Shown: positions 1 through 61,583, counted from the first letter of the stretch. The stretch: 64,000 bases of DNA from Candidatus Woesearchaeota archaeon (GCA_016185945.1 JACPMR010000002.1:10999-74998), one strand, 5' to 3'. Made by a program: numbers and translations. The notes: generated from the letters alone by a model not told the origin.

Positions 1-1455
1 TTCCAGCTCTTTTTCAGTTTCAACGACATTTTTTATTTTGTACAAAAACCACTTGTCGATTTTTGTCAACTCATAAATTTTATCGATTGATATGCCTCTT
101 TTGATTGCCTCGACAATCACAAGCAGCCTTTTGTCTGTTGGAGTTTTCAGTTCTTTCTCGATGTCATTAAAAGTCAGATTGTTTCCAACAAGCCCATGAA
201 GATTTATGCCAAGCATTCTTATTGCCTTTTGAACTGTTTCCTCAAATTTCCTGCCGATTGCCATTACTTCCCCAACGCTTTTCATCTCAGAGCCAATCTC
301 AAAGCTCACATTCCTGAACTTCTGCAAGTCCCATCTCGGGATTTTGACGACAATATAGTCCAATGCCGGCTCGAAGCAGCTTTTTGTCACTTTTGTTATT
401 TGATTTTCTAATTCAATTAAAGAATATCCCAAAGCTAATTTTGCAGCTACAAATGCCAGCGGATAGCCTGTTGCCTTTGATGCAAGCGCAGAGCTTCTTG
501 ATAATCTTGCATTTACTTCTATGATTCTGTAATCCTCAGAGTAAGGGTCAAGGGCAAACTGTATATTGCATTCCCCGACAATTCCAAGATGCCTTATGAC
601 TTTGATTGAAATTTCCCTTAATTTATGGTATTCATTGTTTGTCAGAGTTTGAGATGGAGCAACAACAATGCTTTCTCCTGTATGGATTCCCATGGGATCA
701 AAGTTTTCCATGTTGCAGACGGTGATGCAGTTGTCGTAAGCATCCCTTACAACTTCATACTCAATTTCTTTCCAGCCGCCAAGGTATTTTTCAACAAGAA
801 CTTGAGAAGAGTAAGCAAAAGCGCGCTTTGCTTTGTTTATTAATTCTTCTTCATTCAATGCAGTTCCAGAGCCCTGCCCGCCTAAAGCGTAAGCAACCCT
901 TAGCATTATCGGATATTTTAGTTTTCTGGCAACATCAACTGCTTCTTCGACGCTTGTAACTGCTTCACTTTCAGGCACTTTAAGGTTTATTTCATTCAAT
1001 TTTTTGACAAATAATTCCCTATCCTCAGTATTTTTTATTGCATCAATCTGTGTGCCTAAAACTTTTACGTTGCATTTTTCAAAAATACCATTGTCTGCCA
1101 GTGCAACTCCGCAGTTCAATAACTTTTTCAACAAAATATGGGGTAACAGGAAGAAAATAGATTTTGTCTGCCATGCCTTCGCTAGATTGAATAGTAGCTA
1201 TATTTGGATTTATCAAAATACTCTTTATCCCTTCTTCCTTTAGTGCTTTTAGGCATTGAGAACCGGAGTAGTCGAATTGGCGTCTTTAGCAGATCTCGCC
1301 GGCCTCTCCGATTTTGACTTTGCCTAGATTAAATGCCTAATCTAATGTGCACCGCTGCCTAAGACAAGCACTTTTCTGGGCTTTTTTATCACATCGTTTA
1401 CCTCCGTTCTTAACTTATCAAATCTTTGTAAAAGGGCATAGTCTTTCTTTATCAT
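1..1455 (-). CDS. carB: carbamoyl-phosphate synthase large subunit (CarB), N-terminal ~480 codons; runs off window at position 1; 5' region frame-disrupted (see findings)
   Basis: ATG at 1455 overlaps carA stop (ATGA). N-terminus [36 protein letters not shown]. Then FDYSGSQ...[16 protein letters not shown]. One continuous frame from ~1118 to 1 with motifs [42 protein letters not shown]. In-frame stops in all frames between ~1262-1345 and a frame change near 1090-1118. Confidence 0.75.
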
Positions 1456-2528
1456 TTCCTCCTCTTCACAAACTCATCAAACAGAAACTCTGTATCATAA
1501 GGGCCGGGAGTGCTTTCTGGATGAAATTGACAAGAAAAAAAAGGCTTTGTATTATGCCTTATTCCTTCATTCGTGCCGTCGTTTGCATTAATAAAAAATT
1601 CCTGCCACTCATTGCTTAAAGATTCCATGTCAACAGCAAATCCATGATTTTGGGTTGTGATAAAACATCTTTTTGTCCCAACAAGTGTACAAGGTTGGTT
1701 TTGCGAGCGATGCCCATACTTTAGTTTGTAAGTATCGCCACCTGCTGCCAGCGCCATCAATTGGTTGCCAAGGCAGATTCCAAATGTTGGGATATTTTGA
1801 TTTAGGGCTTTGCTCACATTCTCTATTGTTTTCTTGCACATTTTAGGGTCGCCAGGACCATTGGAAATCAATAATCCATCAAAATCTAGTTTCAGAAAAT
1901 CATAGTCATATGGGACCCTCACAACAGTCAAATCTCTCTTAATCAAATTTCTGATTATGTTATTTTTAATGCCACAGTCAACAACAACGATTTTTTTGTT
2001 TACATTTTTTTCATTATAAACAATTGGCTTTTCTAGTGTGACTTCTTTTACAATATCTATTACGTTTGGATCATAAAAGTTAATATCCTCATTTTCAAAA
2101 ACTATTTTTCCAAGCATTGCGCCTTTCTCCCTTAATGTTTTTGTTAATTTTCTTGTATCAATGCCATAAATTGCTGGAATATTTTCTTCTTTTAGCCAGT
2201 CAGCCAAACTTTTTTTTGCATTCCAATGTGAATACTCAAAAGAATAGTCGGAAATAACTAATGCCTGAACTTGAATTTTATCGGATTCAAAATTCTTTAA
2301 CAGGCTATCCTCTTTTTCTTTTCCAGGCACGCCATAATTCCCGATTAATGGATAAGTTAAAGCAAGAATCTGCCCTTTATAGCTTGGGTCGGTCAATGAC
2401 TCAGGATAGCCGACCATTCCTGTGTTAAAAACTGCTTCGCCTGAAACAGAATGCTCCGCTCCAAAAGAAAAACCATTGAACTCGTCGCCGTTTTCTAGAA
2501 TAAGCTTGACTTCTTTAATGCCGTCCAT
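1452..2528 (-). CDS. carA: carbamoyl-phosphate synthase small subunit (glutamine amidotransferase)
   Basis: 358 aa. CarA N-domain followed by a class I GATase region (GICLGNQLMALAAGG, FHPES). Confidence 0.9.
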   Translation of the reverse strand: MDGIKEVKLILENGDEFNGFSFGAEHSVSGEAVFNTGMVGYPESLTDPSYKGQILALTYPLIGNYGVPGKEKEDSLLKNFESDKIQVQALVISDYSFEYSHWNAKKSLADWLKEENIPAIYGIDTRKLTKTLREKGAMLGKIVFENEDINFYDPNVIDIVKEVTLEKPIVYNEKNVNKKIVVVDCGIKNNIIRNLIKRDLTVVRVPYDYDFLKLDFDGLLISNGPGDPKMCKKTIENVSKALNQNIPTFGICLGNQLMALAAGGDTYKLKYGHRSQNQPCTLVGTKRCFITTQNHGFAVDMESLSNEWQEFFINANDGTNEGIRHNTKPFFSCQFHPESTPGPYDTEFLFDEFVKRRK

Positions 2529-2688
2529 TAAAAAAGGGAGATAGTATGAAGTTGTTAATAAAGGTTGCGGTTTATCTTTTTTAAGGTGCCAAAATGAGTG
2601 AAAAATTATATAGAAATTAGTGTTATTATTACTTTTTAGTAAATAATTAAAAAAGATTTATAAATTGATTATGCTAAATCATAGGTAA

Positions 2689-3615
2689 ATGACAAGTCAA
2701 ACTACTTTAAATCGGAGATATACTACTGATAGATTATATGATATAGTTTTGGCTGAAGCCAAAAATTTCCTAGTCCTTCCTGACGACGTGGCAAAATTGT
2801 GCTTGCAGGACGAACAAAGAACCAAAGCTTTGATGGATATAATATCTGAAACAACGTTGCCTGATACATTAGGAGCAGATATTGGCGCAGGTTCCGGAAT
2901 ACTAGGCTTTGCTTTTCTTAATGCGGGTGGTAGGTATTTGTTCAGTGTTGAAAAATCACCTAGATGGGCTGATTTTATTCGAAAACTCGCTTATCAATTA
3001 GGGTTTCATGAACAAATGAAAGTTTATACCGCCGATGCAACAACTGTTAGGCTGGAACCACACCCTCCAATTGATTATGTTATTGCCGAACTTGTCAGTA
3101 CTGGCTTAAGCCGTGAGCCATTGGTACAGGCTGTGAAAAATATAAGGCAGTATGCTTCTCCTAATGCAATCTATTTACCTTTATGGGTTATTTCAGAAAT
3201 TGTAGTTCATACCGGACGAAGGAGCGGAAATGGTTCAAAACCTCTTACAAAACCAAAAATATATGACGTGGTTCATATGCCTTCTGTATCGGCAACAGGA
3301 GTGGATTGCGAAGTCGAATTAGAAGCAATTAATGAAGGAAAGCCAGAGCATGTTGCTTTAGATACAACTCTTATAGGCCCAAATGGATTGCCAATAGGAA
3401 AATTTGATACACTCTGTGGCTCTTTTTCAGTTCCCTTAAGCTTCGAAGATCCTTCAGCTTCTTTGCTTGTAAAAATGGCAGGTCCATTTACTACTCCAAA
3501 GGTCTCGATTGGGCAAAGGATTATTGTTCGTATTGATTATCAATATGGTGAAGTAATAGATTGTGAATATGGCAGGCCACAAAAAACATTTCGATGGTCT
3601 TGTAGAAAGTTGTAA
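2689..3615 (+). CDS. class I SAM-dependent methyltransferase with PRMT-like architecture (MTase fold plus C-terminal beta domain)
   Basis: Motif I DIGAGSGILGFAF, post-I FSVEKSP, motif II IDYVIAELVSTGL. 308 aa, similar length and order to protein arginine methyltransferases. Opposite strand to the flanking car/arg genes. Confidence 0.5.
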   Translation: MTSQTTLNRRYTTDRLYDIVLAEAKNFLVLPDDVAKLCLQDEQRTKALMDIISETTLPDTLGADIGAGSGILGFAFLNAGGRYLFSVEKSPRWADFIRKLAYQLGFHEQMKVYTADATTVRLEPHPPIDYVIAELVSTGLSREPLVQAVKNIRQYASPNAIYLPLWVISEIVVHTGRRSGNGSKPLTKPKIYDVVHMPSVSATGVDCEVELEAINEGKPEHVALDTTLIGPNGLPIGKFDTLCGSFSVPLSFEDPSASLLVKMAGPFTTPKVSIGQRIIVRIDYQYGEVIDCEYGRPQKTFRWSCRKL

Positions 3616-3648
3616 CTAATAAAGTGCTTCTATAATTTTTAAGAAATT

Positions 3649-4983
3649 TTATTTGAAATTTGAAGGTTTTTTCTGCATATAATTGACGGCTTTTTCCGCT
3701 TCTCCAAAAGTTAATCCTATCCAATATCCGGCATACAATTCTCCATCCACACCAATAAATTTCTGGCTTCCATCTGCTATTTTTCGATATAATATTTCGG
3801 TCGCATCTCTGGAGAATTTTGTTCTCCAAAAAACTTTTGGCCCTATGCGATGTATTATATCAGTGGCTAAGCCATTTCCCCTGTAGCCATTATCTGTAAC
3901 AAGTATATCAAGATAAGGTATTCCATCCACAGCATTGAGCATTACTATACCTAATCCTTTGGCGTGTCTTTCTAAGTAAACAAATTTTTGCCCATTTACA
4001 AAATAATCATCCACAAGTTTTTGCCCAAAATTTCTTTCTGTTATATCTTTGATAACTCTTTGATTTACATTTGCTAAAGATATAGGTTCATTAATAACAT
4101 AACCCAATCTCACCAAAGTTCCCTTACCTTTATGTGTAAATAATTCAAAAGGTATATCACCTGGCTTTGTTATTTGTACACTTTTATCATCACCATTAAT
4201 CCTCATTTCCAAGCTTCTTTTAGCTTCTATTACTTTCTTTAGAGCTCCCTGAGTTACAATTCCTTGCTCTACCAATCTTTCAAAATCTCTTCTTAGTACA
4301 ATTTCATCGATTGTACGTCCTATTGCAACATCTGGATTGTCAAGAATCCCATGTGTTGAAGTCAACAAAAGGTATTTAACTGGGTCAATCGCTTCTACTA
4401 ATTTTGCGCCTACTGTATCTCCGTTAATATTAAACAGCTTAACCCCGCCAGCTGAAACTCCAATAGGAGAAAGAACAGGTATCATGGCTTGTGAAGCCAA
4501 CTGCAGTAATGGTTGTGGATTAATAAGGACAATTTCTCCATTATGGGCGCCATAGCCAGAGTCCTGTTTATCTTTTGTGATTATAACCTTTGCTTCGTAT
4601 TCTACACCAGCCACAGGAGTTCCTTTTGATGCTATAGCTTTTACCAGCCTTTGTCTCGTTTCAGAAGCAACTTCTAAAACATGTGGAAATACCTCCTCAT
4701 CAGTATATCTATCTTCCTCGGGGGTGAAAACTGTTGCTATCCCTTTTGCCTCCAATCTCTTTGTTAAAGTTTTGCCCCATCCATGAACAACAATCGGAAT
4801 TAAGCCCAGTTTTGACAGAAACGCCAAATCATTAGCTATGCTTTCGAGGTCATTTTCTAAACACTCTCCACCTATTTTCAGAACTGCGAATCTCCCAGGT
4901 TGTGCCTGTCTGAAGAGACTCCAGTAATAAAATGCTTCTTCATGTTTTATTCTTCCCAGCAAATCTACTACATTATCAATCAT
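3649..4983 (-). CDS. argA: amino-acid N-acetyltransferase (N-acetylglutamate synthase, two-domain bacterial type: amino-acid kinase domain plus GNAT)
   Basis: AAK-fold motifs VLKIGGE, VVHGWG. C-terminal GNAT motif YRGNGLATD. 444 aa. Confidence 0.7.
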   Translation of the reverse strand: MIDNVVDLLGRIKHEEAFYYWSLFRQAQPGRFAVLKIGGECLENDLESIANDLAFLSKLGLIPIVVHGWGKTLTKRLEAKGIATVFTPEEDRYTDEEVFPHVLEVASETRQRLVKAIASKGTPVAGVEYEAKVIITKDKQDSGYGAHNGEIVLINPQPLLQLASQAMIPVLSPIGVSAGGVKLFNINGDTVGAKLVEAIDPVKYLLLTSTHGILDNPDVAIGRTIDEIVLRRDFERLVEQGIVTQGALKKVIEAKRSLEMRINGDDKSVQITKPGDIPFELFTHKGKGTLVRLGYVINEPISLANVNQRVIKDITERNFGQKLVDDYFVNGQKFVYLERHAKGLGIVMLNAVDGIPYLDILVTDNGYRGNGLATDIIHRIGPKVFWRTKFSRDATEILYRKIADGSQKFIGVDGELYAGYWIGLTFGEAEKAVNYMQKKPSNFK

Positions 4984-6331
4984 TTTTATTTACTAATGAT
5001 TTAGCTTTAGAACTAAATTTTTCAATTTCAGTGTCAATTTTCTTTTGCAATAATTTAATTTTCTCCTTTATCTTCTCCAACCCCAAATTTCCAGTTGCTC
5101 CAATATGTTTTTTTGATTGAATATTTTTTATTGGGTTGATTTTTGGCAATTTGTTTATGTTCTTTGCAGTTTGCTTATAGGCATCTCTAAACGGAATTCC
5201 TTTTTTTACTAATTCATAAGCATGCTCTGTGGCAAATAAGTCTGGTGTGCATGCTGAAATACACTTGTCTTTGTTGACTTGGATTTTCTCAATGACTATT
5301 TTGAATATATTTAATGCTGAAAGTGCAATTTCAAAACTTTCCATAAGCGGCTCTTTTGTTAGCTGCAAATCCCTATTGTAGCCAGACTGCAATTTTGATA
5401 TGATGCTCTTTACTAAATATAAGTTTGAATCAACTTTTGCTGCTTTTGCGCGTGTTAATTCAAATACGTCAGGATTTTTCTTTTGAGGCATTATAGAACT
5501 GCCTGTGCAGAATTCATCTGGAAGCTTGAAAAATCCAAATCCATCCATACTGAATAATATTAAATCATTCGATAATCTTGCCAAATCATTCATTACATTG
5601 CTTAATGCGAAGATCGTAACAGATTCGAATTTGCCTCTACTATTTTGAACGTAAAGAACATTATTCTGAACTTTTTCAAACCCGAGCAAGTCTGCAACTA
5701 ATTGCCTATCTACATTCAAAGACAAACCATAACCTGCTCCGCTGCCTAATGGAGATTGATTATTGAGGTTATAGGCTTCTTCCAATAATCCCGAATCATC
5801 AATTAACGATTCTGCAAAGCTTCCAAAATACAATCCAACGGAGCTTGGCATTGCCTTTCTTGAATGAGTGTAACCTGGCATAGGAATATCTTTGTATTTT
5901 TCTGCAGCATTAACTAGAACAGATGCTAATTCTAAAGTCAGTTTTTGAACTTCAAGCAGTTTTTCTTTTGAATATAATCTTATATCAACTAGAACTTGGT
6001 CGTTTCTTGAGCGGGCAGTATGGATTTTCTTGCCCAAATCTCCCAATTTTTTTATAAGGTAGTTTTCTATTGATGTATGAACATCTTCATCTTCAAGTTT
6101 TATCTCAAATTGATTTTTTTGATGCAATTCCATAATTTCAATCAATGCTTTTTTCAATTTTTGAAGTTCATTTTTTGATAGAATTCCGATTTTTTCCAGC
6201 ATTATTGCATGCGCAATGCTTCCATAAACATCATATTTCACTAGATTTTTGTCTATTAAAAAATCATTTCCAACAGTGAATTTTTCAATTTCTTTGTTTA
6301 AGCTGTAGTCCTTTTGCCAGAGTTTTGACAT
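4976..6331 (-). CDS. argH: argininosuccinate lyase
   Basis: Fumarase/ASL signature GSSIMPQKKNPD. 451 aa. Confidence 0.9.
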   Translation of the reverse strand: MSKLWQKDYSLNKEIEKFTVGNDFLIDKNLVKYDVYGSIAHAIMLEKIGILSKNELQKLKKALIEIMELHQKNQFEIKLEDEDVHTSIENYLIKKLGDLGKKIHTARSRNDQVLVDIRLYSKEKLLEVQKLTLELASVLVNAAEKYKDIPMPGYTHSRKAMPSSVGLYFGSFAESLIDDSGLLEEAYNLNNQSPLGSGAGYGLSLNVDRQLVADLLGFEKVQNNVLYVQNSRGKFESVTIFALSNVMNDLARLSNDLILFSMDGFGFFKLPDEFCTGSSIMPQKKNPDVFELTRAKAAKVDSNLYLVKSIISKLQSGYNRDLQLTKEPLMESFEIALSALNIFKIVIEKIQVNKDKCISACTPDLFATEHAYELVKKGIPFRDAYKQTAKNINKLPKINPIKNIQSKKHIGATGNLGLEKIKEKIKLLQKKIDTEIEKFSSKAKSLVNKND

Positions 6332-6336
6332 TTTAT

Positions 6337-7176
6337 TTAATGTACAAGTTCTGCCACCCTCGAAAGTATCTCAACATTTGTGGCTATAATTCTTGCTTGA
6401 TCAGCTAGATTATATCTGCCATCAGCAATAAATACAGCGGGGACTTCAAGTGCAAAGTTGACTGTGCGATGCTCTTTTGCAAACTCTAGTATAGTGAAGT
6501 CATTATGCGCTGGTGCATATACATGTTTTCGTATTTCTTGAAAACCACTTGCTATTGGTACACATCCCTCTCGAATAGGATTCCCATTTGCTCTGATAAC
6601 TTCGATTAACAATCTTTCTATTTCTCTTTGCAGTTCTGATTCAATAGGTGCCGTAATTATAATATAAGGTTCGCCTACACAATTATGAATGTCTATTACA
6701 ACTAACGAGTTAGCTACTATATGTTCAATCTCTCCAATAAAAGATGGTTTTTGAACATGACTTCCGTAGCCCCAGTGACCCCACTTAGGATATAAATTAC
6801 CTATATTTTCGCTTTCTAAAAATTGATAAAACATAAAGTTTAACAAATTTTGGTCGCCATCACTTAATGCTCTAGTTTTTCCAACTTTTTTGTACATAGT
6901 ATCAAACATGTCAGCGTTAACCACAGGCGCAGCACTCATTGGAGCTCCGCTTGCAAGTGTCTCCAATACCGACTGATAAGTACCAAAAATTTCATTTGCG
7001 TGATGCATTGCAGTAACACATAGTCTTCCTCCAGCCCTAAATAAGTAAACTCTTTGCTCCTCTCCTTTTCCAGCGTCAATTAATTTTCCTTTTCCAGAGA
7101 CTGCAAGTCTTTTCAAAGGCTCGACAACAAATCTTTGATAATAACTCATTTTAATCAGCTTTTTTATGCGCTTCAT
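6337..7176 (-). CDS. succinylglutamate desuccinylase/aspartoacylase (AstE/AspA) family zinc deacylase-like protein
   Basis: VTAMHHANEIFG resembles the GxHGNE zinc-binding motif of the AstE/AspA (M14-like) family. 279 aa. Sits between argH and argG with an overlapping stop/start at 7176. Confidence 0.4.
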   Translation of the reverse strand: MKRIKKLIKMSYYQRFVVEPLKRLAVSGKGKLIDAGKGEEQRVYLFRAGGRLCVTAMHHANEIFGTYQSVLETLASGAPMSAAPVVNADMFDTMYKKVGKTRALSDGDQNLLNFMFYQFLESENIGNLYPKWGHWGYGSHVQKPSFIGEIEHIVANSLVVIDIHNCVGEPYIIITAPIESELQREIERLLIEVIRANGNPIREGCVPIASGFQEIRKHVYAPAHNDFTILEFAKEHRTVNFALEVPAVFIADGRYNLADQARIIATNVEILSRVAELVH

Positions 7177-8396
7177 TATCTCTTATTCCTCAGAGAACTA
7201 GCCTTTAATCTCAAAGCATTTAATCTGATAAAACCTAAAGCATCTTTTTGGTCGTAGCCGCCTAAAACATCCATGCTGCTTAAGTCCTGATTGTATAATG
7301 ATTCATTTGATTCTCTGCCTATAACCATGCAGTTTCCTTTGTACAAAGACAAATGGACTGTTCCACTTACATGCTCTTGGCTTTTGTCGAATGCTGCTCT
7401 CAAAAAGTCCATCTCAGGAGAGTACCAAAATCCATAGTAGATTAATTCTGCAAACTTTGGCATTAGCATTTCACGCAGATGCATCACTTCTCTGTCTAAT
7501 GTAATGCCTTCTATATCGCGATGCGCGATGTGCAATATTGTCCCTGCCGGCGTCTCATAAACTCCCCTTGACTTCAGGCCCACAAAGCGGTTTTCAACCA
7601 TGTCAATCCTGCCAATGCCGTTTTCGCCGCCAATTTTGTTCAAATATTGGAATAACTCCAATGGCTTTGCCTTTATAGTGCCATCATTTTTGTTTGTCAC
7701 CTTTACCGGATTTCCACTCTTAAATTCAATCTCTATTATTGTTTCCTGATCGGGCGCATCTTTCGGGCTTTTGGTCATCTCAAACATTTCTTCGCTTGGC
7801 GTTAAATTCGGGTCTTCCAAAATGCCTGCTTCATAACTGATATGCATTAAGTTTGCATCTGTGCTGTAAGGAGCTTCTTTAGTTGCTTTCACTGGAATTC
7901 CGTTTTTATTGGCAAATTCTATCATATCAGAGCGCCCTTTGAATTGTGACAAGAATTCTGCATCCTTCCAAGGCGCAATAATTTTTATTTTTGGGTTTAA
8001 TTTCATATAAGTAAGCTCAAATCTGACTTGGTCATTGCCTTTGCCAGTAGCGCCATGGCTTACGTATTCAGCATTTTCTTTTTCTGCAATTTCTATTTGC
8101 TTTTTTGCAATCAATGGTCTTGCCAAAGAAGTTCCCATTAGGTAGCGTCCTTCATAAACGGCATTTGCCCTTATTGCTGGAAATATGAAATCTGTGACAA
8201 ACTCTTCTTTCACATCTTCAATGTAAACTTTTGAAGCGCCTAATTTCAATGCCTTTTCCTTTGCTGCATCAAAATCTTCATTTTGCCCCAAATCAGCTAC
8301 AAATGCAACTACATCAAAGCCTTTATTAATCAACCATTTCAGGATTACAGATGTGTCCAAGCCCCCACTATAGGCTAAAACTACCTTTTGCTTCAT
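7176..8396 (-). CDS. argG: argininosuccinate synthase
   Basis: N-terminal PP-loop [10 protein letters not shown]. 406 aa. Confidence 0.92.
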
Positions 8397-8783
8397 TTAT
8401 CTATTAACTCCCCACTTGCATTGTCCAAATCCTCTGCCAGCAAATTATCAAAAAAATCTCCAGTTTTTGCAGAGTGAATTTTCGCGTTTTGTTTCATCAA
8501 ACATTACAGCATTAAATCTATTTTTAAATATGATGCCCGAACCAAAACAAAAATAAACAAAAATGTCCAAAACAAAACATTTAAATATTTGAATTGATTT
8601 TTATATTAAATGTGTAGTTTCGACACAATCAAAATATCAAAAACAAAATCAACAAACACGAGAGCGACTTTTGTATGCACAGCATGATAAAAGTGAACCG
8701 CTTGCGACAGTTCGCTTATATATTTACAATGGATAGGCGAAGGGGTTAAATGCCCCTGAGCAGTATCTTTTGCCGAAGGCAGT

Positions 8784-9455
8784 TTGAAAATATTAAAAAA
8801 ATTTAAAGTCTCCCTTAAAATGCCAAACATAACAAAATTAACAGAACAATACATTTTAGAACATCCTTCCATTAAAGATTGCCTGAAGAATGGCTTGATT
8901 AATTATTCCTCTTTATCACGACAGATTACCAGCGAATTGAATTTGAACTTAAAGAAAAACTTTGACGCGATATTGATAGCATGCCGCAGATTTAAATCCA
9001 AATTAAGGAAGGGGGAAGTTCATGAAAAAGAGATTTTGAAAATATTGAAGGACAGCAAGATTGAGATTAAGAACAAAATAGTGGCTGTGGTGCTGGAAAA
9101 GGATATTTACTTTGGGCATTTAATAAGCCTGGAAAAGGAAATCAAAAAGCAAAATGAAATTTTCAGAGTGATTGAGGGAGTTTCCGCAATAACAATAATA
9201 ACAACCGAGGAATTTTTAGATTCAATCAAAAAATATTTTAGGAACAAGATAATCCTGGAGAACAAAAATCTTGCGGAAATAACAATAAAAAGCCCAAAGG
9301 AAATTGAAACAACTCCTGGAACTTACGCTTATATGTCCTCATTATTTGGAGAAAACAACATAAATATAGTTGAAAGCTTAAGCTGCTGGACTGACACGAT
9401 TTTCCTTGTAAAAGAGGAGGATGCCGGGAAAGTGATTGGCTTGCTGAGATTTTGA
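8784..9455 (+). CDS. ACT-domain-containing putative amino-acid-binding regulatory protein (start more likely the internal Met near 8820)
   Basis: Two ACT-like beta-alpha-beta-beta-alpha-beta segments after an N-terminal helical region. Divergent from the arg genes. Confidence 0.4.
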   Translation: MKILKKFKVSLKMPNITKLTEQYILEHPSIKDCLKNGLINYSSLSRQITSELNLNLKKNFDAILIACRRFKSKLRKGEVHEKEILKILKDSKIEIKNKIVAVVLEKDIYFGHLISLEKEIKKQNEIFRVIEGVSAITIITTEEFLDSIKKYFRNKIILENKNLAEITIKSPKEIETTPGTYAYMSSLFGENNINIVESLSCWTDTIFLVKEEDAGKVIGLLRF

Positions 9456-18474: not shown

Positions 18475-18800
18475 AGAGAATATTATCTCCACAAGAATCG
18501 GAAGAAATTTGGGGATTGGTAAACTTGGGCACGATTAGGCACCATGCTGACGCAAGGGCAGCTAAAGAAACTGTCTATGAATTATTGAGAAGAATGTACA
18601 TTCTATCCAAAGCTATACATGATAGACAAAAACCACAAATAGGTATTATAAATATGGTGGCGTTCGATTCTGCTTTAAGAGAGTTAGAAATGTTGCCACA
18701 ATTTTCAAATTTCAGATCAAGACATCCTAATGCGGTTCAAATACTTAGACAAGCATATACTGTTATTCAAAATTATGTACTATCTCCTTCAACTCCATAA
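18465..18800 (+). CDS. hypothetical protein
   Basis: 111-aa ORF overlapping the MTTase stop by 10 nt. No motifs. Confidence 0.3.
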   Translation: MELERILSPQESEEIWGLVNLGTIRHHADARAAKETVYELLRRMYILSKAIHDRQKPQIGIINMVAFDSALRELEMLPQFSNFRSRHPNAVQILRQAYTVIQNYVLSPSTP

Positions 18801-19899
18801 ATTTATCCATTAAATTCAGCGCTTCTGCAACTGGCTTAAATGTGATATGCCCCTTGTATGTGTTGACACCTTTCGCGAACCCTGCATCATTTTCCATTGC
18901 ATTCTCGAATCCGTCATTTGCAAGCTTCAATGCATAAGGCAATGTGGCTGCTGTCAGCGCAATTGTCGATGTCCTAGGGTAAGCTCCCGGCATGTTGGTG
19001 ACGCAATAATGGGTTACTCCGTGCTTGACAAAAACAGGATCAGAGTGCTTTGTGGGCTTTGAAGTTTCTATACACCCTCCTTGGTCGATGCTGACGTCAA
19101 CAATCACTGAGCCGAGCTGCATTGTCTTTACCATTTCTTCTGTCACGACATGGGGCGCTTTTGCGCCTGTGACAAGGACTGCTCCCACAACCAAGTCAGC
19201 ATCCTTGATATGCTCTGAAATATTTTCAGGAGTGGAAAGCAGTATATGGGCTTTTCTCCCTATAAACTCTTTCAGGTTGTCCATTCTTTCCTGGTGCCTT
19301 CCAAAAACATAAACATTGGCGCCCATCCCATAAGCGGTTTTTGCAGCGTGCCTTCCCACAACGCCGTCTCCTACAACAACAACCTTGCCATAGAAATGCC
19401 CCATAACCTCGCCGAGCTGCATTCCCCTGCCATTGTTAAATTTCGCAAGATAGTAAGAGCCGATTGTGACAGCCATGTTGCCTGCAACCGCGCTCATAGG
19501 AGCAAGCAAAGGCAATCTGTGGTAAGCGTCTTCAACTGTCTCATATGCGATGCCTGTTGTCTTGTTTTTTAGCAATGCCTCTGTCAATGTTTTTGTGACT
19601 CCGGCAAGATGCAGATAAGTGAATAGAATCTGGTTTTCTTTTAAGAAATAGTACTCACTTTCCAGCGGCTCTTTTACTTTAAGAACAAGCTCCACATTCC
19701 AAGATTCTACAGTGCTTACAATCTTTGCGCCTGCATCTGCATACTCCCCATCACTGAATCCGCTGCCAATTCCTGCATTTTTCTCAACCAAAACTTCATG
19801 CTTGTGGGAAACTAGCTGCTTTGCTCCCTCTGGTGTCAGCGCAACCCTGTTCTCTTTGTCCTTTATCTCCTTCGGTACTCCTATTATCAATTGAATCAC
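18763..19899 (-). CDS. ald: alanine dehydrogenase
   Basis: N-terminal IGVPKEIKDKENRVALTP. NAD-binding VVVGDGVVG. 378 aa. GTG start. Confidence 0.85.
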   Translation of the reverse strand: MIQLIIGVPKEIKDKENRVALTPEGAKQLVSHKHEVLVEKNAGIGSGFSDGEYADAGAKIVSTVESWNVELVLKVKEPLESEYYFLKENQILFTYLHLAGVTKTLTEALLKNKTTGIAYETVEDAYHRLPLLAPMSAVAGNMAVTIGSYYLAKFNNGRGMQLGEVMGHFYGKVVVVGDGVVGRHAAKTAYGMGANVYVFGRHQERMDNLKEFIGRKAHILLSTPENISEHIKDADLVVGAVLVTGAKAPHVVTEEMVKTMQLGSVIVDVSIDQGGCIETSKPTKHSDPVFVKHGVTHYCVTNMPGAYPRTSTIALTAATLPYALKLANDGFENAMENDAGFAKGVNTYKGHITFKPVAEALNLMDKFMELKEIVHNFE

Positions 19900-19926
19900 C
19901 TTTTAAATTTTTAATTTGATTTTTTA

Positions 19927-20140
19927 TTATTTTAAATTCCAATCCGTTGCTTCGCAACATTAGTTACTGCTCGGCTTTCGCTCCCCTGCCAGTGACATGC
20001 GAGGCTCGCGAAGAGACTCGCTCGCCAGTCACCCGCTCAAGCCTCGCCTATTTATTTAATAAATTCAGGCAAACATTCCTGAGCTGGGTTCCCATATCAC
20101 CTAGGTAGATGCTGGGAAGCGACGTTTTTGAAATATTTTT
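19927..20140 (+). repeat. element copy B (subfamily-1 3' part, with a ~50-nt internal GC hairpin module)
   Basis: ttccaatccg GTTGC-TTCG-GCAAC. Internal module ccagtgacatgcgaggctcgcgaagagactcgctcgccagtcac. Confidence 0.6.
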
Positions 20141-20228
20141 ATTATTGTTTTTTTTTGAAATTTTTTAATGCGGTTTTTGAAAAATTCGATTTTTTATTTA
20201 TTGAATTATTTTATTTAATTATTGATTT

Positions 20229-21245
20229 TTATTTTATCCCAAATGTTCTATTTGTCATTTGCATTGACTTTTCCCCGTCCTTGAAGCCAGTCATTGCACG
20301 AATGCAGTCAATGTTTTCGGGGATTACATCTGATTCCTGGTGAACTGCCTGCATATAGAGTAATTTGTTGTGGGCGTTTGAGGTTATCCCAACCGCTTCC
20401 TGCCATACACAGATTTCAGGCATGTCCCCCCTTAGCCTGCCCATGTCCCTTGCAAATTCCATAATCTCTGCTGTCGAACGGAGATGCTCTGCATTCCTTA
20501 CAACCCTTACCCTTGTGGTATTCTTGAACAACTCAATCGCATCCTCAACATTTATCCTTTTCTTCAAGTCAACAGTCAAGGTGTGCAAATGCATCAAGGT
20601 TGATGGAACGCTCAATGCTGTTGTAAAAATCTCGACATTGTGCAACACACTCTGAACATCTGGGCCATGATGGCTTGGCATCTCCAAAACTGGAACAATC
20701 GCATTTATCGGCCCATGGTAAATGTCGCCAGGGTCTGCTCCTCGCCTTATCATTGTTGCGTGAACGCTTTCAATGCCATATGCCTTGTCAACAGCATGCA
20801 AGGTCCTGCAAAGTCCTGTTGTATTACAGCTTACAATCCTAACATAATCCTTGTTCAGTGCCTCCTTATAGTTGCACTGCGCGACAAAGCTTGTGCCTGT
20901 TGTTTCATGCTTCTCGCCGCCCTGCACGATTGCCTTGACTTTTTTCAGTTTGTACAGTTTTTCTAAGTTTTCCTTTCCAATTTTTTTTGGTGTTGCATCT
21001 ACAATAATATCAACATTGTCAAGCAGGTTGTTTATGTCGCCGTCTGGCTTTATGCCATTTGTTTTTAATTCCGAAGAATCTCCAACGCTAAAAATCTTGT
21101 AGCCCTTTGACTTTGCAACCTCTGTGTTAAAGCTATACGAATGCGCTGTAACTCCAACAAGCTTCATGTCTCTTTGCATTGCGACTGCATCAGCAACTCT
21201 CTTGCCGATTGTTCCGTAGCCGACAATCCCAACCTTAATTGCCAT
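20229..21245 (-). CDS. gap: glyceraldehyde-3-phosphate dehydrogenase, archaeal type II
   Basis: VGIVGYGTIGKRVA. Active-site VSCNTTGL. Confidence 0.88.
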   Translation of the reverse strand: MAIKVGIVGYGTIGKRVADAVAMQRDMKLVGVTAHSYSFNTEVAKSKGYKIFSVGDSSELKTNGIKPDGDINNLLDNVDIIVDATPKKIGKENLEKLYKLKKVKAIVQGGEKHETTGTSFVAQCNYKEALNKDYVRIVSCNTTGLCRTLHAVDKAYGIESVHATMIRRGADPGDIYHGPINAIVPVLEMPSHHGPDVQSVLHNVEIFTTALSVPSTLMHLHTLTVDLKKRINVEDAIELFKNTTRVRVVRNAEHLRSTAEIMEFARDMGRLRGDMPEICVWQEAVGITSNAHNKLLYMQAVHQESDVIPENIDCIRAMTGFKDGEKSMQMTNRTFGIK

Positions 21246-21251
21246 TTTTCA

Positions 21252-22268
21252 TTACTCTTCGTTTTCCATTTCTTCTTTGTATTTTCCCATTGTTGCCAAG
21301 CTATTTAACTTGGCGCGCTTTACGAATGCCTTTTGGGCTTTTGGGATGTTTTCATCCTTGCCCTGCCATGCCTTCAAAGCAGGATCCTGCAATGCCCTTG
21401 CATAGGAAAAGCTGACATACCATGGCAAATCCTCTCCTAAAGTGTGTATCCTGTTTAAGTGGGCTGTTGCTTCCTGCGGAGTCTGCCCGCCTGAAAGAAA
21501 ATTAATGCTTGGCAGCTCTTCGGGCACTGTTGCTTTCAGGCATTTCACTGTTCTTCTTGCAACCTCGTCAACGCCTGCCCTGCTATTTGCCTCTTTCCCA
21601 GAAATCACCATGCTCGGCTTCAATATGGCACAATCAATTATCACATTTTCTTTGTTCAATGCGTCAAACACCGCCCTCAAAACTTTTTCATTAACTTTAT
21701 GGCATGCATCGATAGAGTGGGTGCCGTCAATCAAAACTTCCGGCTCGACAATAGGCACAAAGCCATGCTGCTGGCATATTTTTGCATATTTTGCCAAGTC
21801 ATGCGCGTTTCTCTGGATTAATTTTTCAGTTGGTGTGTTTTCTGAAATAGAATAAACTGCGCGCCATTTGGCAAACCTCGTCCCAGCTTCTTTGTATTTT
21901 TCCAGCCTGTCCCCTAATCCATCGAGCCCTCTTGTGTACTGCTCTGCAGAGCTGTCAAAGTCAGCAAGCCCTTCGTCTACTTTAATACCTGGAACAATGC
22001 CTTTGCTGCTCAGCACTTCAGGAAATAAAATGCCATCATTTGACTTTTGATGCAGGGTTTCTTCATATAAAATAACTCCGCAAATGTATTTTTCCATTCC
22101 GGGAGCAGCCAGCATTACATTCCTGTACTGCCTTCTTGTCTCTTCTGTTGATTCAACGCCAATGCTTGCCAACCTTTTTGTTGCAGTCTTAACGCTTTCA
22201 TCAGCAGCCAAAATTCCCTTTCCGACAATTACCATGTCCTTTATTGTCTGTTTAAGCTCTTGGCTCAT
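21252..22268 (-). CDS. fba: fructose-bisphosphate aldolase, class I (eukaryotic/glycolytic-type fold)
   Basis: GILAADES, ILFPEVL and SGGQ motifs typical of class I FBA (PF00274-like). 338 aa. Confidence 0.85.
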   Translation of the reverse strand: MSQELKQTIKDMVIVGKGILAADESVKTATKRLASIGVESTEETRRQYRNVMLAAPGMEKYICGVILYEETLHQKSNDGILFPEVLSSKGIVPGIKVDEGLADFDSSAEQYTRGLDGLGDRLEKYKEAGTRFAKWRAVYSISENTPTEKLIQRNAHDLAKYAKICQQHGFVPIVEPEVLIDGTHSIDACHKVNEKVLRAVFDALNKENVIIDCAILKPSMVISGKEANSRAGVDEVARRTVKCLKATVPEELPSINFLSGGQTPQEATAHLNRIHTLGEDLPWYVSFSYARALQDPALKAWQGKDENIPKAQKAFVKRAKLNSLATMGKYKEEMENEE

Positions 22269-22323
22269 AACTATTTCACCTTTTGATTTTTAAGTGATTT
22301 TGATTTTTATTCGACGACTAATC

Positions 22324-22465
22324 TTTCAATCCGGCTTTGCCAAATTCTAGTGCTCGGCAAAACTTCCCTTTCAATCAGTTTTGCCTCGCCTATATATTCA
22401 ATAAAAAATAAAAAGCGGTTTACTTTCTTCACGCTTACATCCAAAAGTCGCTCTCGTTTTTTTGA
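22324..22465 (+). repeat. element copy C (subfamily 2)
   Basis: ttcaatccg, then ctcGGCAAAACT...AGTTTTGCCtcgcctatatattcaataaaa...aaagtcgctctcg. Confidence 0.6.
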
Positions 22466-22550
22466 TTTAAATTTTTTAATGAGTTTTAGTATTGTTTTAA
22501 TTTTTATTGATGAATTTTTTATTGATATTTGTTTTGAAATCTTTTTTAAC

Positions 22551-23507
22551 TTAATAATCGGGAAAATGCTCGAACTTGTGCCTTGCCTCGATAAATCTGA
22601 CTGTCTTTGTCTTTGCGCGCATTACAATTGAGTGTGTTTTTGCCCCGCCGCTCAGGAATTGCACTCCTTTGAGGATTGTTCCGTCTGTAACTCCTGTTGC
22701 CGCGAACATCGCCTCGTCGCTTTTAACCAATTCATTCATTGCAAGCTTTTTGTCAAAGTCAGTTATCCCCATTTTTCTAGCTCTTGCCTTTTCTTCCTCG
22801 TTCCTGAAATTTAATCTGCCCTGAATTTCGCCGCCAAGGCACTTAAGCGCAACTGCTGCGATGACGCCTTCCGGAGCCCCCCCGATTCCCATTAAAATAT
22901 CAACCCCTGAATCCTCGATTGCAGGCGCCAATGCTCCTGCTATATCCCCGTCTCTTATCAACTTGATTCTTGAGCCGCATTTTCTGATTTTTTCAATCAT
23001 TTCTTTATGCCTGTCTCTATCCAAGATTATTACAGTTACCTCGTCAATCGGCTTATCTAACTTCTCAGCAACTGCTTTAAGATTCTCTTCAACAGAAGCA
23101 TCCAAATCGACAGTGCCAACACATTCAGGGCCGACAGCGATCTTGTCCATGTAAGTGTCAGGGGCATTTAACAAGCAACCAGAAGGAGCAGCGGCAAAAA
23201 CAGACATCGCATTTGGGTCTCCTCTTGCTGTGATTGTTGTGCCTTCAAGAGGGTCTACAGCAATATCGAGCTTTGTGTTTCTGCCTGTGCCAACTTTTTC
23301 ACCAATAAAAAGCATTGGGGCTTCATCTCTTTCGCCTTCACCGATGACAATCGTGCCGTCCATGTCAATAATGCTGAAAGATTTTCGCATTGCCTCAACT
23401 GCAGCTTGGTCTGCTGCCTTTTCATTGCCTTTTCCCATCCAGTAAGCTGAGCTTATTGCAGCCGCCTCTGTGGCTCTTACAAAGTCCAAAGCAAGATTCC
23501 TGTCCAT
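22551..23507 (-). CDS. glpX: fructose-1,6-bisphosphatase class II (GlpX type)
   Basis: GlpX-like sequence throughout (GEGERDEAP, DPLEGTT, MGIGGAPEGV). Confidence 0.85.
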   Translation of the reverse strand: MDRNLALDFVRATEAAAISSAYWMGKGNEKAADQAAVEAMRKSFSIIDMDGTIVIGEGERDEAPMLFIGEKVGTGRNTKLDIAVDPLEGTTITARGDPNAMSVFAAAPSGCLLNAPDTYMDKIAVGPECVGTVDLDASVEENLKAVAEKLDKPIDEVTVIILDRDRHKEMIEKIRKCGSRIKLIRDGDIAGALAPAIEDSGVDILMGIGGAPEGVIAAVALKCLGGEIQGRLNFRNEEEKARARKMGITDFDKKLAMNELVKSDEAMFAATGVTDGTILKGVQFLSGGAKTHSIVMRAKTKTVRFIEARHKFEHFPDY

Positions 23508-39420: not shown

Positions 39421-40420
39421 TTAAGTTATTTTATAAGTTCCCGGCTTCATAAACACCTTTTCCGTTTTGACAGCAAGTCCTTTTTCTCCAAGCATTTCCT
39501 TTGAGTTCATTTGTGATGTACCAAGTGCTATTAGCTCATTTTTTAGAGTCATTATAGCCACTACGCTATTCTGATTTATTCCACTTTCTACTTTACTTAT
39601 TCCAGGCACTTTCAAGTCAACGCCGTGGCATAAACTTTCAACAGTTGTGTCGAAAACCCAGATTTTTGGAAGGTGATTTACGCCATTTTCAACCAGCTGG
39701 ATTACTTTTCTGATGAATCTCTCATTGTTTTCTTCCTTCCAGAAATGATATGCGTCCTGAAGTTCGTGCAGCGTGAATAAAGTTGATTCGTCAAAAGGGC
39801 CTGCTTTTGTTCTTCTCAATTCAGCCATATGCGCGCCTGTGCCAAGTTTTTTTCCGATGTCGTGAATCAATTTTCTTATGTAAGTGCCTGCCTCTGTGCC
39901 GACTTTGAACAAAACATCCTTTCCGTCAATTTCAAGAATGTCAAGATAATAAACTGTTCTTGTCCTTAACTGCCTTTTGACAGAGCTTTTAATAGGGGGC
40001 AACTGCTCAATTTTTCCGATGAAATGCTTTTGAATTGTTTCCCTTAATTTTTCCTCTTCGACTTCCTTGTGCAAGTGCATTATTGCAACATACTCCTTGC
40101 CTGCTGTCAAAAGCGCTTGCACAATCCTTGTTGCTCTGCCTAAAGCAATTGGAAGAACTCCGGTTACTGCGGGATTTCTCTGATTTTTACTCTAGAGTCC
40201 CAGAGTGACCAGATTTAGTTATTCCGAGTATTTTTTGCACGTAGTCAGCGACCTGATGGCTTGTTGGACCTTTCGGTTTATCTATGTTTATGATTCCATA
40301 ATTTATTATCCCTTCTGTTTTCCTGTCCTCAGGTTTACAACCATATCCTTCGCCTGTCTCTGCTTCTTTCCGAACAAGGACTTTTCTTTCTATTCTTTCA
40401 AATGGTAACAGATTTTTCAT
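39421..40420 (-). CDS. cbf5: tRNA/rRNA pseudouridine synthase Cbf5 (TruB family), interrupted: exon 1 40191-40420, exon 2 39421-40174 (327 aa if 16 nt removed)
   Basis: Track ORFs 40187-40420 (...KSGHSGTLE*) and 39421-40122 are contiguous Cbf5. Removing 40175-40190 restores [23 protein letters not shown] with the catalytic Asp. Confidence 0.8.
40175..40190 (-). other. 16-nt intervening sequence in cbf5 (candidate bulge-helix-bulge-type archaeal intron; alternatively an indel)
   Basis: Pre-mRNA GGGACUCUAGA|GUAAAAAUCAGAGAAA|UCCCGCAG. GGGA pairs with UCCC and CUCU with AGAG, leaving an AAA bulge at the 3' junction. Confidence 0.45.
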
Positions 40421-52018: not shown

Positions 52019-52028
52019 TCCATTCACC

Positions 52029-54122: not shown

Positions 54123-54478
54123 CTTATTCTAATAAATTTTCTATAAATAATTGTCAGCAAACAAGACACTAAATAATAATATGCTAACAAAACAATAAAA
54201 ACTAATATAAGTGAAGATGTGAAACCATATCTTTCTATATCTATGCTAATATTTGTTATATCTGTAATAAAAATTAAAGGATAAATTGGGCCAGTAACTA
54301 AAAAAGACGGTTTTGATACAATAACGTCTCCAACCTGAGTGTAATAAGCAAAAGGTACTATCCCAAAGAATCCTAAAGTAGCTATAATGATAAATATTAA
54401 GGTGGTTAATATTTTCCATTTCGTCGGTCTAAAAAACTCAACTAAAAACTCATAAATCTTAAATTGTTTTTTTTCCAT
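54119..54478 (-). CDS. small membrane protein
   Basis: 119 aa with 3 hydrophobic segments. Confidence 0.4.
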   Translation of the reverse strand: MEKKQFKIYEFLVEFFRPTKWKILTTLIFIIIATLGFFGIVPFAYYTQVGDVIVSKPSFLVTGPIYPLIFITDITNISIDIERYGFTSSLILVFIVLLAYYYLVSCLLTIIYRKFIRIR

Positions 54479-54551
54479 TTTAGTTCACCTTGACCTTGCA
54501 AGTTGCTACAGTTTCACTCATTTTCACCACCTTTTTTATTTTTTATTTAAA

Positions 54552-56558: not shown

Positions 56559-56729
56559 ACTAACACCCCCAAACTGATTTTTATGATAAAGTACAACTCC
56601 TATTTATATTTTTTCATTTTCTCGTCTATAAATCTTGTATAATCCATTCTATATAAAATATATTTCTTCAATTCTTAAAACTTAATCGAGTTAATAAATT
56701 TTTAACAATAATTCATGTTACATAGTACT

Positions 56730-61573: not shown

Positions 61574-61583
61574 TTTTAATAAT

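Follow-up and report, generated by a model that had tools for sequence, protein, structure and literature searches.

A contig of Candidatus Woesearchaeota, from a tiny DPANN archaeon, carries an argG-X-argH-NAGS/K operon. We predict that X, a 279-aa orphan, is a catalytically active mono-zinc hydrolase from the superfamily to which AstE and AspA belong. We consider it plausible, although tentatively so, that X is a non-orthologous ArgE-like deacylase supplying the missing deacylation step of arginine synthesis.

Organization of the arginine genes

In the 64,000-nucleotide stretch of DNA analyzed here (the window), four genes on the minus strand overlap or abut one another.

7176-8396, minus strand: argG, argininosuccinate synthase, first gene of the operon (NF001770, 584 bits; TIGR00032, 513 bits)
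6337-7176, minus strand: X, 279-aa orphan M14-like (clan MC) predicted zinc hydrolase
4976-6331, minus strand: argH, argininosuccinate lyase (TIGR00838, 363 bits against a cut-off of 279.5)
3649-4983, minus strand: NAGS/K, AA_kinase plus NAT (PF04768), from Pfam

Both Pfam domains of argG, Arginosuc_synth and its C-terminal domain, were matched. The ATG of X is overlapped by 1 nt by the TAA stop of argG, 5 nt separate X from argH, and argH shares 8 nt with NAGS/K. Judged by this spacing, the junctions are operon-like, and we expect a single transcript, with translational coupling, for X, argG, argH, and the bifunctional-type NAGS/K. Because the identical X protein is encoded on six independently assembled metagenome contigs, it is not an assembly artefact. 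A preliminary description of the region had placed an argA-type fusion, argH, and argG contiguously on one strand, with a 279-aa ORF bearing an HHANE motif between argH and argG; the ORFs and their order are as described, and the motif is present as TAMHHANEIFG at residues 55-65.

The carbamoyl-phosphate synthase genes lie at lower coordinates, separated from the arginine operon by a plus-strand methyltransferase gene.

1452-2528, minus strand: carA, carbamoyl-phosphate synthase small subunit (TIGR01368, 462 bits)
1-1455, minus strand: 5' part of carB, running off the window

carAB had been described as upstream of the arginine genes; carA and the 5' part of carB are indeed present, but on the same strand and downstream. 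The first ~110 codons of carB are broken by two short inserts and one deletion. Candidate bulge-helix-bulge introns were seen in cbf5 and carB.

The AAK+NAT protein resembles bifunctional NAGS/K

The ORF at 3649-4983 matched the Pfam families AA_kinase (83 bits) and NAT (48 bits). Its best match in the PDB was the Xanthomonas NAGS/K (3S6K, E 1.6e-48, residues 13-424), in whose alignment the kinase motifs K-x-GG, HGxG, and N-x-D are present, and it aligned over its full length with the Maricaulis NAGS/K (3S6G/3S6H, E about 1e-37). PRK04531 also matched at full length with 220 bits, under the NCBIfam cut-off of 426. The NAGS/K of Xanthomonas campestris and Maricaulis maris and the vertebrate NAGS have the same length and the same AAK plus PF04768 NAT architecture, while the protein described here is archaeal, with ~30% identity; a word-indexed search found only five close relatives. 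Based on these matches, we predict that it has the activities of a bifunctional NAGS/K of the Xanthomonas/Maricaulis/vertebrate type. The preliminary reading of a bacterial-type two-domain ArgA was right about the fusion of AAK with an acetyltransferase but not about classical ArgA (AAK plus a PF00583-type GNAT): TIGR01890 scored 60.9 bits against 202.85 and covered residues 30-292, the kinase domain only.

Searches by tblastn with the proteins of a relative, together with Pfam scans of the larger ORFs, found no argC, argD, argF, argJ, separate argB, or ADI homologue in the 64-kb window. The earlier statement that argB, C, D, F, and J are absent from the window therefore needs one amendment, in that the argB step would also be covered by a protein of the bifunctional NAGS/K type.

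X belongs to a small family with a predicted carboxypeptidase-like active site

The predicted active site of X is encoded at three places.

6991-7005, minus strand: codons of H58-H59-A-N-E62; H59 and E62 are predicted zinc ligands (HxxE), near-invariant in 24 family members
6682-6693, minus strand: codons of D162-I-H164-N165; H164 is the predicted third zinc ligand (24-member alignment)
6445-6447, minus strand: codon of E244, predicted general base/acid, near-invariant in 24 members

In the alignment of 24 family members, which share the motifs HHAxE and DxHN, D162, N165, and P246 show no variation and H59, E62, H164, and E244 almost none, bearing out the HxNE zinc motif noticed earlier. Profile alignment pairs H59, E62, H164, Y220 (24 residues upstream of E244), and E244 of X with H69, E72, H196, Y248, and E270 of carboxypeptidase A (CPA). 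X thus has the zinc triad His-x-x-Glu...His with a catalytic Glu, as well as the fold and catalytic residues of M14 metallocarboxypeptidases. The AF2 model, built with the 24 sequences (pLDDT 92), consists of one alpha/beta domain with H164 at the end of a beta-strand and a single helix at the end of the chain, 35 residues following E244. A conserved N-terminal helix (Y13, L21) is specific to the family, and the N-terminus contains neither a signal peptide nor a hydrophobic stretch. These features suggest that X is a cytosolic, single-domain amidohydrolase whose family, small and not classified before, lies within the M14/AstE-AspA superfamily (clan MC). Searching 1.84 billion cluster representatives found 28 of the family, and homologues are missing from nearly all genomes.

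X matched no Pfam family at E<=10 and no NCBIfam model, and the 24 members gave no Pfam match at E<=1, AstE_AspA and Peptidase_M14 included, nor any NCBIfam match. The AstE_AspA models (PF04952/PF24827), which the preliminary description had proposed as a check, matched neither X nor any of the 24, and X lacks the beta-rich C-terminal domain of the AstE/AspA family (succinylglutamate desuccinylase, aspartoacylase, DoeB/EutE, CphZ), so the proposed assignment holds for the superfamily but not for the family. AstE/AspA enzymes are also structurally further from X than true M14 peptidases, and the X family has no family-wide conserved arginines. The family profile found at best carboxypeptidase B2 in the PDB, at E 0.25-0.56 over the PVVNxDGY segment. 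Compared with the M14 metallocarboxypeptidases (carboxypeptidase A/B/T), to whose structures it is 12-15% identical, X has no pro-domain or signal peptide and is encoded within an amino-acid operon. The M14 anchors Arg127 and Asn144-Arg145 have no conserved counterpart in X, where the aligned region is variable or gapped and without a conserved basic residue; in the alignment of the 24 sequences, neither Arg nor Lys occupies an invariant position, and R216 is invariant solely in the five closest. Single-domain 'putative metallopeptidases' of Shewanella (PDB 3IEH, 2QVP, 3B2Y) are bacterial, 12-14% identical to X, and of unassigned function, and therefore give no functional lead.

Homologues of X recur beside arginine genes

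As the preliminary description had suggested, the genomic context of homologues was inspected, and the association of X with arginine genes extends to other genomes. Relatives of X adjoin argG or argH in five other lineages, and X is adjacent to argG, argH, or an arginine-deiminase-like (ADI-like) gene in at least eight distinct lineages, with translational coupling in several. The closest homologue lies in locus L010 in the order argG-X-ACT; the argG there (a fragment) is 85% identical to that of the window, versus 44% for X. The order is argG-X-argH in L011, X is convergent with argH in L015, and in L026-28 X lies about 4 kb from argH-argG-NAGS/K. In L012, a close relative whose argH is 73% identical to the one described here, and in L013, the cluster reads argG-[X remnant]-argF-argH-argJ-argB-argD-argC, where X is a deletion pseudogene retaining residues 1-71 and a frameshifted C-terminal scrap.

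More distant X proteins (clade 2, 26-30% identity) are encoded by genes that overlap an ADI-like gene at its 3' end in L019, L026-28, and L029, within a different six-gene operon. In the ADI-like proteins, the FxRD and HLD aspartates that bind the guanidino group are retained, as is the cysteine of GGPHC. In some lineages, a 122-aa partner domain accompanies X and the ADI-like enzyme. In L026, ArgRS is encoded near X, and no argC, argD, or argF was found in the 21 kb read of the 33-kb contig. No OTC gene was found near X except where X is dead, and no arg neighbours were found for the homologues in L007, L016/17, and L020.

A candidate operator and regulator upstream of argG

Three features lie between argG and the divergent gene or within that gene.

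8561-8582, minus strand: 22-nt palindrome AAATGTTTTGTTTTGGACATTT, candidate operator, ~165 nt upstream of argG and beside a TATA-like box
8650-8790, plus strand: relatively GC-rich intergenic segment (GC 0.42-0.45), possible structured RNA
8784-9455, plus strand: divergent gene, probably starting near 8820, whose product has an N-terminus resembling a helix-turn-helix and an ACT domain at its C-terminus

The palindrome has one match in the window versus 0.05 expected. A degenerate form of the pattern has exact matches upstream of NAGS/K in L021-23, L024, L025, and L026-28, and the block flanking the palindrome (8518-8615) is 83-92% identical in these loci, versus only 30-50% for the proteins. 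The ACT domain recognized in the preliminary description corresponds to a match of the C-terminus to ACT_7 (E 4e-6, 26.9 bits, just below the 27-bit cut-off), next to a weak match to DUF7523. The genes divergent from NAGS/K in L021 and L026 encode proteins 60% and 47% identical, respectively, to this one, which is a candidate arginine-responsive regulator. The 'GC-rich leader' noted before is raised over its flanks, although modestly (0.42-0.45 at 8650-8770, flanks 0.17-0.25, window ~0.36). The plus strand of this segment folds with a z-score of -3.5, compared with -0.8 for the minus strand, no Rfam match was found at 8650-8790, and the corresponding position in L021, L024, and L025 is occupied by a stem, a GC hairpin, and a T-run.

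Possible roles of X

X would hold one Zn2+ through H59, E62, and H164, and the metal would activate a water molecule, with E244 as general base/acid and Y220 assisting, as in carboxypeptidase A. The enzyme would cleave an amide bond of a small arginine-pathway metabolite, most likely by stripping the N-alpha-acyl group (acetyl or succinyl) from N-acyl-ornithine or N-acyl-citrulline, and its product would feed ArgG, encoded immediately upstream. X would then stand in for ArgE, or for the acetylcitrulline deacetylase of Xanthomonas, with the same reaction and the same place in the pathway, here a linear one initiated by NAGS/K and without ArgJ. It lacks the M20 catalytic domain, two-metal site, and dimerisation domain of ArgE. 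Clan MC contains N-alpha-acyl amino acid deacylases, namely AstE, aspartoacylase, and DoeB, whose substrate is N-acetyl-2,4-diaminobutyrate, and the presence of ArgJ removes the need for a deacetylase. Published work describes NAGS/K enzymes as typical of linear pathways that have no ornithine acetyltransferase (PMC3236213); because such pathways need a deacetylase, an ArgE-like role of X is plausible. The acetylcitrulline deacetylase step of Xanthomonas is likewise associated with a NAGS/K-type first enzyme (PMC3236213). We read the decay of X in L012 and L013 as loss where it is redundant, since ArgJ is encoded there, a correlation that comes from one lineage.

Several findings weigh against the ArgE-like role. 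argC, argD, and argF are missing from both the 64 kb here and the 21 kb of L026, so a complete acetylated route can only be supposed for these organisms. Three homologue contexts have no arg neighbours, the structurally nearest proteins are peptidases rather than deacylases, and the family has no family-wide Arg or Lys for the alpha-carboxylate, with R127 and N144-R145 of CPA lacking a conserved counterpart. The pairing with ADI-like genes in three divergent loci is hard to explain for a biosynthetic deacetylase, and makes other arginine- or citrulline-related reactions possible.

It is unlikely, but deserves consideration, that X is an arginine-releasing exopeptidase, either carboxypeptidase-B-like or a dipeptidase, with substrates such as Xaa-Arg or beta-Asp-Arg, which would supplement the arginine pool of a DPANN cell that lives by scavenging. 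The complete CPA-type catalytic set is conserved, the Tyr248 equivalent included, and arginine is common to all contexts (product of ArgH, substrate of ADI, with ArgRS nearby in L026), so that such an enzyme would be sensible both beside arginine-making argG/argH and, elsewhere, directly after an arginine-consuming deiminase; its loss in L012, with a complete de novo pathway, would also suit a dispensable salvage enzyme. However, Asn144-Arg145, the M14 clamp on the peptide C-terminal carboxylate, and Arg127 are not conserved, and the position of the CPB specificity residue 255 holds Leu or Ile rather than Asp, in a part of the alignment that is tentative. The N-terminus carries no signal peptide and is not hydrophobic, and clade-1 X is fixed right after argG, not beside peptide transport or peptidase genes.

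The overlapping ADI-like and X genes also bring up an improbable reading, in which X acts after the deiminase on a ureido compound, as a citrullinase (citrulline to ornithine, CO2, and NH3) or a hydrolase of some other carbamoylated product, serving a salvage network built around citrulline and not de novo synthesis. Citrulline is the sole metabolite common to ADI (as product) and ArgG (as substrate), OTC is missing near intact X, and agmatine deiminase with N-carbamoylputrescine amidase is a precedent for successive deiminase and amidase steps. With their conserved Asp and Cys residues, the ADI-like proteins are expected to yield a ureido product, and they are not of the CtlX type, a putative citrullinase in which the guanidino-binding Asp is replaced by Asn (PMC9007349). 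Yet a citrullinase between argG and argH would compete with ArgG, and clade-2 X, distant in sequence and in a different operon, may differ in function. Moreover, we know of no M14-like enzyme that hydrolyses ureido groups, the ureidohydrolases known to us being M20 or nitrilase-type. Ctu belongs to PF00795 (PMC9007349).

Lastly, that X is a fast-evolving accessory hydrolase of unrelated role lodged in the operon is very improbable, because its catalytic residues are clearly constrained and it recurs beside arginine genes in at least eight lineages, even though three contexts lack arg genes, X diverges much faster than the neighbouring argG in L010, and nearly all genomes have no homologue.

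Beyond the ArgE-like role, a more far-reaching proposal, which we regard as unlikely, is that this DPANN lineage has a self-contained arginine module, consisting of NAGS/K, ArgG, ArgH, X, the HTH-ACT regulator, the 22-nt operator, and in some lineages the ADI-like enzyme and the 122-aa domain, that works without ArgC, ArgD, ArgF, and ArgJ. X would then catalyze a reaction unprecedented in the M14 superfamily, such as N-acyl-citrulline deacylation or citrulline ureidohydrolysis, in a new citrulline-centred route or salvage cycle rather than a fragment of the textbook pathway.

Implications

DPANN archaea are thought to be without most amino-acid biosynthesis. A comparative study found ArgG and ArgH in Altiarchaeota and Micrarchaeota only (PMC8407392). 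Here, a Woesearchaeota lineage has a compact arginine operon with candidate regulation, and the operon holds an enzyme family recognized by no annotation library. If X is the deacylase, a new, non-orthologous enzyme would take the ArgE/ArgJ step and fill a gap that automated pathway reconstruction scores as 'missing'. If it is not, its repeated pairing with argG and ADI-like genes would point to an undescribed arginine or citrulline reaction.

An Arginine Operon with an Additional Gene

As the preliminary description had observed, the window contains a cluster of arginine genes, which consists of four ORFs on the minus strand:

7176–8396, minus strand: argG (NF001770, 584 bits)
6337–7176, minus strand: 279-residue ORF, here called X, between argG and argH
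4976–6331, minus strand: argH (TIGR00838, 363 bits)
3649–4983, minus strand: 444-residue fusion of an AA_kinase and a NAT (PF04768) domain

The TAA stop codon of argG and the ATG of X overlap by one base, X and argH are separated by 5 nt, and argH overlaps the fusion gene by 8 nt, indicating that the four genes form one operon. X is encoded identically, each time between argG and argH, on six contigs assembled independently from other sequencing runs, so the ORF is not an assembly artifact. X and the 444-residue protein are identical to the NCBI proteins HYX02_00115 and HYX02_00105, respectively, of the Candidatus Woesearchaeota (DPANN) metagenome-assembled genome to which the window belongs, and archaeal hallmark genes (proteasome alpha, SBDS, exosome Rrp4/Rrp41/Rrp42, and Cbf5) are present elsewhere in the window. 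ArgG and ArgH were reported in one comparative study to be absent from DPANN except Altiarchaeota and Micrarchaeota (PMC8407392), which makes this cluster unusual for Woesearchaeota. Genes for ArgC, ArgD, ArgF, ArgJ, and arginine deiminase (ADI) were not found in the 64-kb window, either by tblastn with proteins of two metagenome loci (L012 and L026) as queries or in Pfam scans of its larger ORFs.

Two other regions differ in composition. A minus-strand central-carbon cluster at 18763–23507 (alanine dehydrogenase, a GAPDH-like protein, class I fructose-bisphosphate aldolase, and GlpX-type fructose-1,6-bisphosphatase) has a GC content of 0.41–0.43, above most of the window, and may therefore be laterally acquired. 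The stretch at 52000–61600 is low in GC (0.30–0.32 between 52 and 58 kb) and encodes very large FG-GAP-repeat proteins, a subtilase-FG-GAP fusion of 944 residues, and several ORFs of 670–700 residues without a family match.

The Fusion Protein Resembles Bifunctional NAGS/K

The 444-residue protein had been labeled a bacterial ArgA, which is wrong in detail. Its acetyltransferase part is the PF04768 "NAT" domain, and TIGR01890, the model of classical ArgA, scores no more than 61 bits where 203 are required, with a match confined to the kinase domain. The closest solved structure is that of the bifunctional enzyme NAGS/K (N-acetylglutamate synthase and kinase) of Xanthomonas campestris (3S6K, E = 1.6e-48, residues 13–424); the NAGS/K of Maricaulis maris is also among the best structures, followed by the NAGK of yeast and the human NAGS NAT domain. 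The alignment to 3S6K shows the kinase motifs K-x-GG, HGxG, and N-x-D. Judged from its sequence, the protein is a NAGS/K and not a classical ArgA. Such bifunctional enzymes seem characteristic of linear arginine pathways without ornithine acetyltransferase (PMC3236213), and a pathway of this type needs a deacetylase.

In L021, a locus of another lineage, an intact carB N-terminus directly follows the NAGS/K gene with no carA between them (2423–5112), an arrangement that repeats the proximity of NAGS/K and carbamoyl-phosphate synthase in the window.

Interruptions in cbf5 and carB

The cbf5 gene (approximately 39421–40420, minus strand) carries a 16-nt insert at the codon of the catalytic Asp (40176–40191). 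This insert has a canonical bulge-helix-bulge fold, with a 4-bp helix (CUCU/AGAG) and 3-nt bulges (AGA and AAA). Once it is excised in silico, the encoded protein has 327 residues and runs colinear with that of Pyrococcus (E = 2.5e-121), making the insert a candidate intron. Within the crenarchaeal sample of one study, cbf5 introns were found in no orders other than Desulfurococcales and Sulfolobales (PMC2738675), and an example from a DPANN archaeon may therefore be new.

Three lesions lie in the 5' region of carB (1–1455, minus strand). The first is an 18-nt insert at 1277–1294 with an in-frame UAA stop, which takes a bulge-helix-bulge form (helix GGCG/CGCC; bulges AGA and AAU) with the same cut rule as in cbf5; the second is a hairpin insert of 26–29 nt at 1319–1347, in which the motif is imperfect; and in the third, near 1115–1123, approximately 14–16 codons (the ..PD..GGQTA segment) are missing and the frame is shifted. 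Removal of both inserts restores a 19-residue stretch colinear with CPS1 and CarB. Because the deletion is beyond repair by splicing, carB may still be defective, perhaps a pseudogene, or locally misassembled.

Putative Regulatory Elements Upstream of argG

Three features lie between argG and the divergent gene upstream of it or coincide with that gene:

8518–8615: conserved block with a palindromic core at 8561–8582
8650–8790, plus strand: segment with a stable predicted fold
8784–9455 (likely start 8820), plus strand: HTH-ACT protein (HTH-like N-terminus, ACT domain at the C-terminus), which matches DUF7523 weakly

Against an expectation of 0.05 copies, the window holds one copy of the 22-nt palindrome AAATGTTTTGTTTTGGACATTT, which lies approximately 165 nt upstream of argG. 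Its degenerate pattern is matched exactly in four other lineages, each time upstream of NAGS/K; the surrounding 60–70 nt are 83–92% identical there, whereas the proteins share only 30–50% identity. At least five lineages have the block, including its TATA-like flank, ahead of an argG or NAGS/K operon, and it probably serves as operator and promoter of an arginine regulon. L021 (60% identity) and L026 (47%) likewise have the HTH-ACT gene in divergent orientation beside the arg operon, and its product, which belongs to no well-described family, is the obvious candidate for a dedicated regulator.

The segment at 8650–8790 had been described as a GC-rich leader. It is richer in GC than its flanks, but only relatively so. 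Rfam gave no match, either to the whole window at gathering thresholds or to 8380–8850 at E ≤ 1, and ARAGORN likewise found nothing; for lack of an Rfam match, a riboswitch or leader of known type was rejected. The plus strand, and only this strand, folds more stably than shuffled sequences (z = −3.5), and equivalent positions in three other loci (L021, L024, and L025) hold a stem that shows compensatory changes, together with a GC hairpin and a T-run. The segment could encode a small RNA or the leader of the regulator gene.

X Belongs to a New M14-like Family

X had no match in Pfam (up to E = 10), NCBIfam, or PDB sequence searches, so the AstE_AspA HMM check that the preliminary description had suggested fails, and none of 24 aligned family members matched any Pfam family. 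A word-indexed homologue search retrieved only X itself when X alone was used and only three proteins when the family profile was used, and two scans of genome contigs, a set in which the genome of the window is not represented, gave one locus (L020). When 1.84 billion cluster representatives were scanned exhaustively with HMMER, 27 relatives were obtained, with a top identity of 44%.

Near-invariant in the family alignment are H59 and E62 (HHAxE), P84-V85 (PVVD/N), D162-x-H164-N165, and E244-x-P246, among which H59, E62, and H164 are the predicted zinc ligands and E244 the predicted general base/acid. The prediction is that X is an active hydrolase with a single zinc, and the conserved catalytic residues speak against a pseudo-enzyme. 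The AlphaFold2 model computed with the family alignment has a pLDDT of 92 and a pTM of 0.91, while the sequence alone gave an unusable model (pLDDT 38). Foldseek agrees with this fold, with three uncharacterized single-domain Shewanella "metallopeptidases" at the top. A cytosolic location is expected from the N-terminus of X, which is helical and hydrophilic.

X shares the catalytic core of M14 enzymes but has a divergent substrate-binding site, and it shows some AstE/AspA-like local motifs without the C-terminal domain of those enzymes. From an HHANE motif, the preliminary description had placed X in the AstE/AspA family; this was a good call at the superfamily level but wrong in detail at the family level, where neither the HMM nor the architecture agrees. 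X, conserved and probably active, is a zinc amidohydrolase whose family is new and M14-like.

Gene Neighborhoods of X Homologues

X is embedded in the arginine operon of the window and is repeatedly associated with arginine/citrulline genes elsewhere. In the nearest clade (37–44% identity; L010, L011, L012/L013, L015, and L016/L017), the gene order is argG-X-ACT protein in L010, where argG is 85% identical to that of the window versus only 44% for X, and argG-X-argH in L011; argH is convergent with X in L015, and no arg genes surround the homologues in L016/L017. L012, a close relative as judged from an argH 73% identical to that of the window, and L013, from a different sample, carry a complete cluster, argG-[X remnant]-argF-argH-argJ-argB-argD-argC. 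In both metagenomes the remnant between argG and argF (L012, 370–660; L013, 1520–1717) comprises residues 1–71 and a frameshifted piece matching approximately residues 228–250. X has thus decayed in the sole lineage seen with ArgJ and a separate ArgB, and it is intact where NAGS/K is present.

In a distant clade (26–33% identity), an upstream, divergent ADI-like gene and X overlap at the end of the former (L019, 2–2368; L026, 8829–14576; L027, L028, and L029), and X precedes, or is fused to (P0014, 399 residues), a 122-residue domain ending in ..YTCPCR. On the 33-kb contig of L026, the ADI-like/X pair heads an operon of six overlapping genes that also encodes a beta-propeller-like protein, an unknown protein, a flavin reductase, and an SDR, with two AsnC/Lrp-type regulators ahead of it; argH-argG-NAGS/K, a divergent regulator, and ArgRS lie approximately 4 kb from its end. 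The ADI-like proteins retain the aspartates of FxRD and HLD and the cysteine of GGPHC, indicating that they act on a guanidino substrate. The putative citrullinase of the CtlX type has Asn in place of these guanidino-binding aspartates (PMC9007349), and their retention rules out CtlX-type citrullinases. Three further X homologues have unrelated neighbors.

A Possible Role for X

In the most economical reading, which we favor tentatively, X would remove the acyl group in a linear pathway initiated by NAGS/K. In support, the pathway requires a deacetylase, the place of X immediately behind argG is fixed, and X is a pseudogene in the ArgJ-bearing relative. Against this role, the neighborhoods seen lack argC, argD, and argF, the distant-clade X is coupled to the ADI-like gene, and X has no recognizable carboxylate-binding residue. 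An exopeptidase or dipeptidase that releases arginine is rather unlikely, and a ureidohydrolase or citrullinase working after the deiminase is improbable. That the association with arginine is incidental, as the homologues with unrelated neighbors might suggest, is very improbable given its recurrence. Some other arginine-related amidase takes up the remaining probability.

The earlier interpretation holds for the superfamily and the arginine linkage of X but not for the AstE/AspA family or the ArgA label. Its proposal that X replaces ArgE is unproven but survives the refuting condition set for it, because X co-occurs with arg genes in other genomes. As the acyl-removing enzyme, X would deacylate N-acyl-ornithine or, as in Xanthomonas, N-acyl-citrulline.
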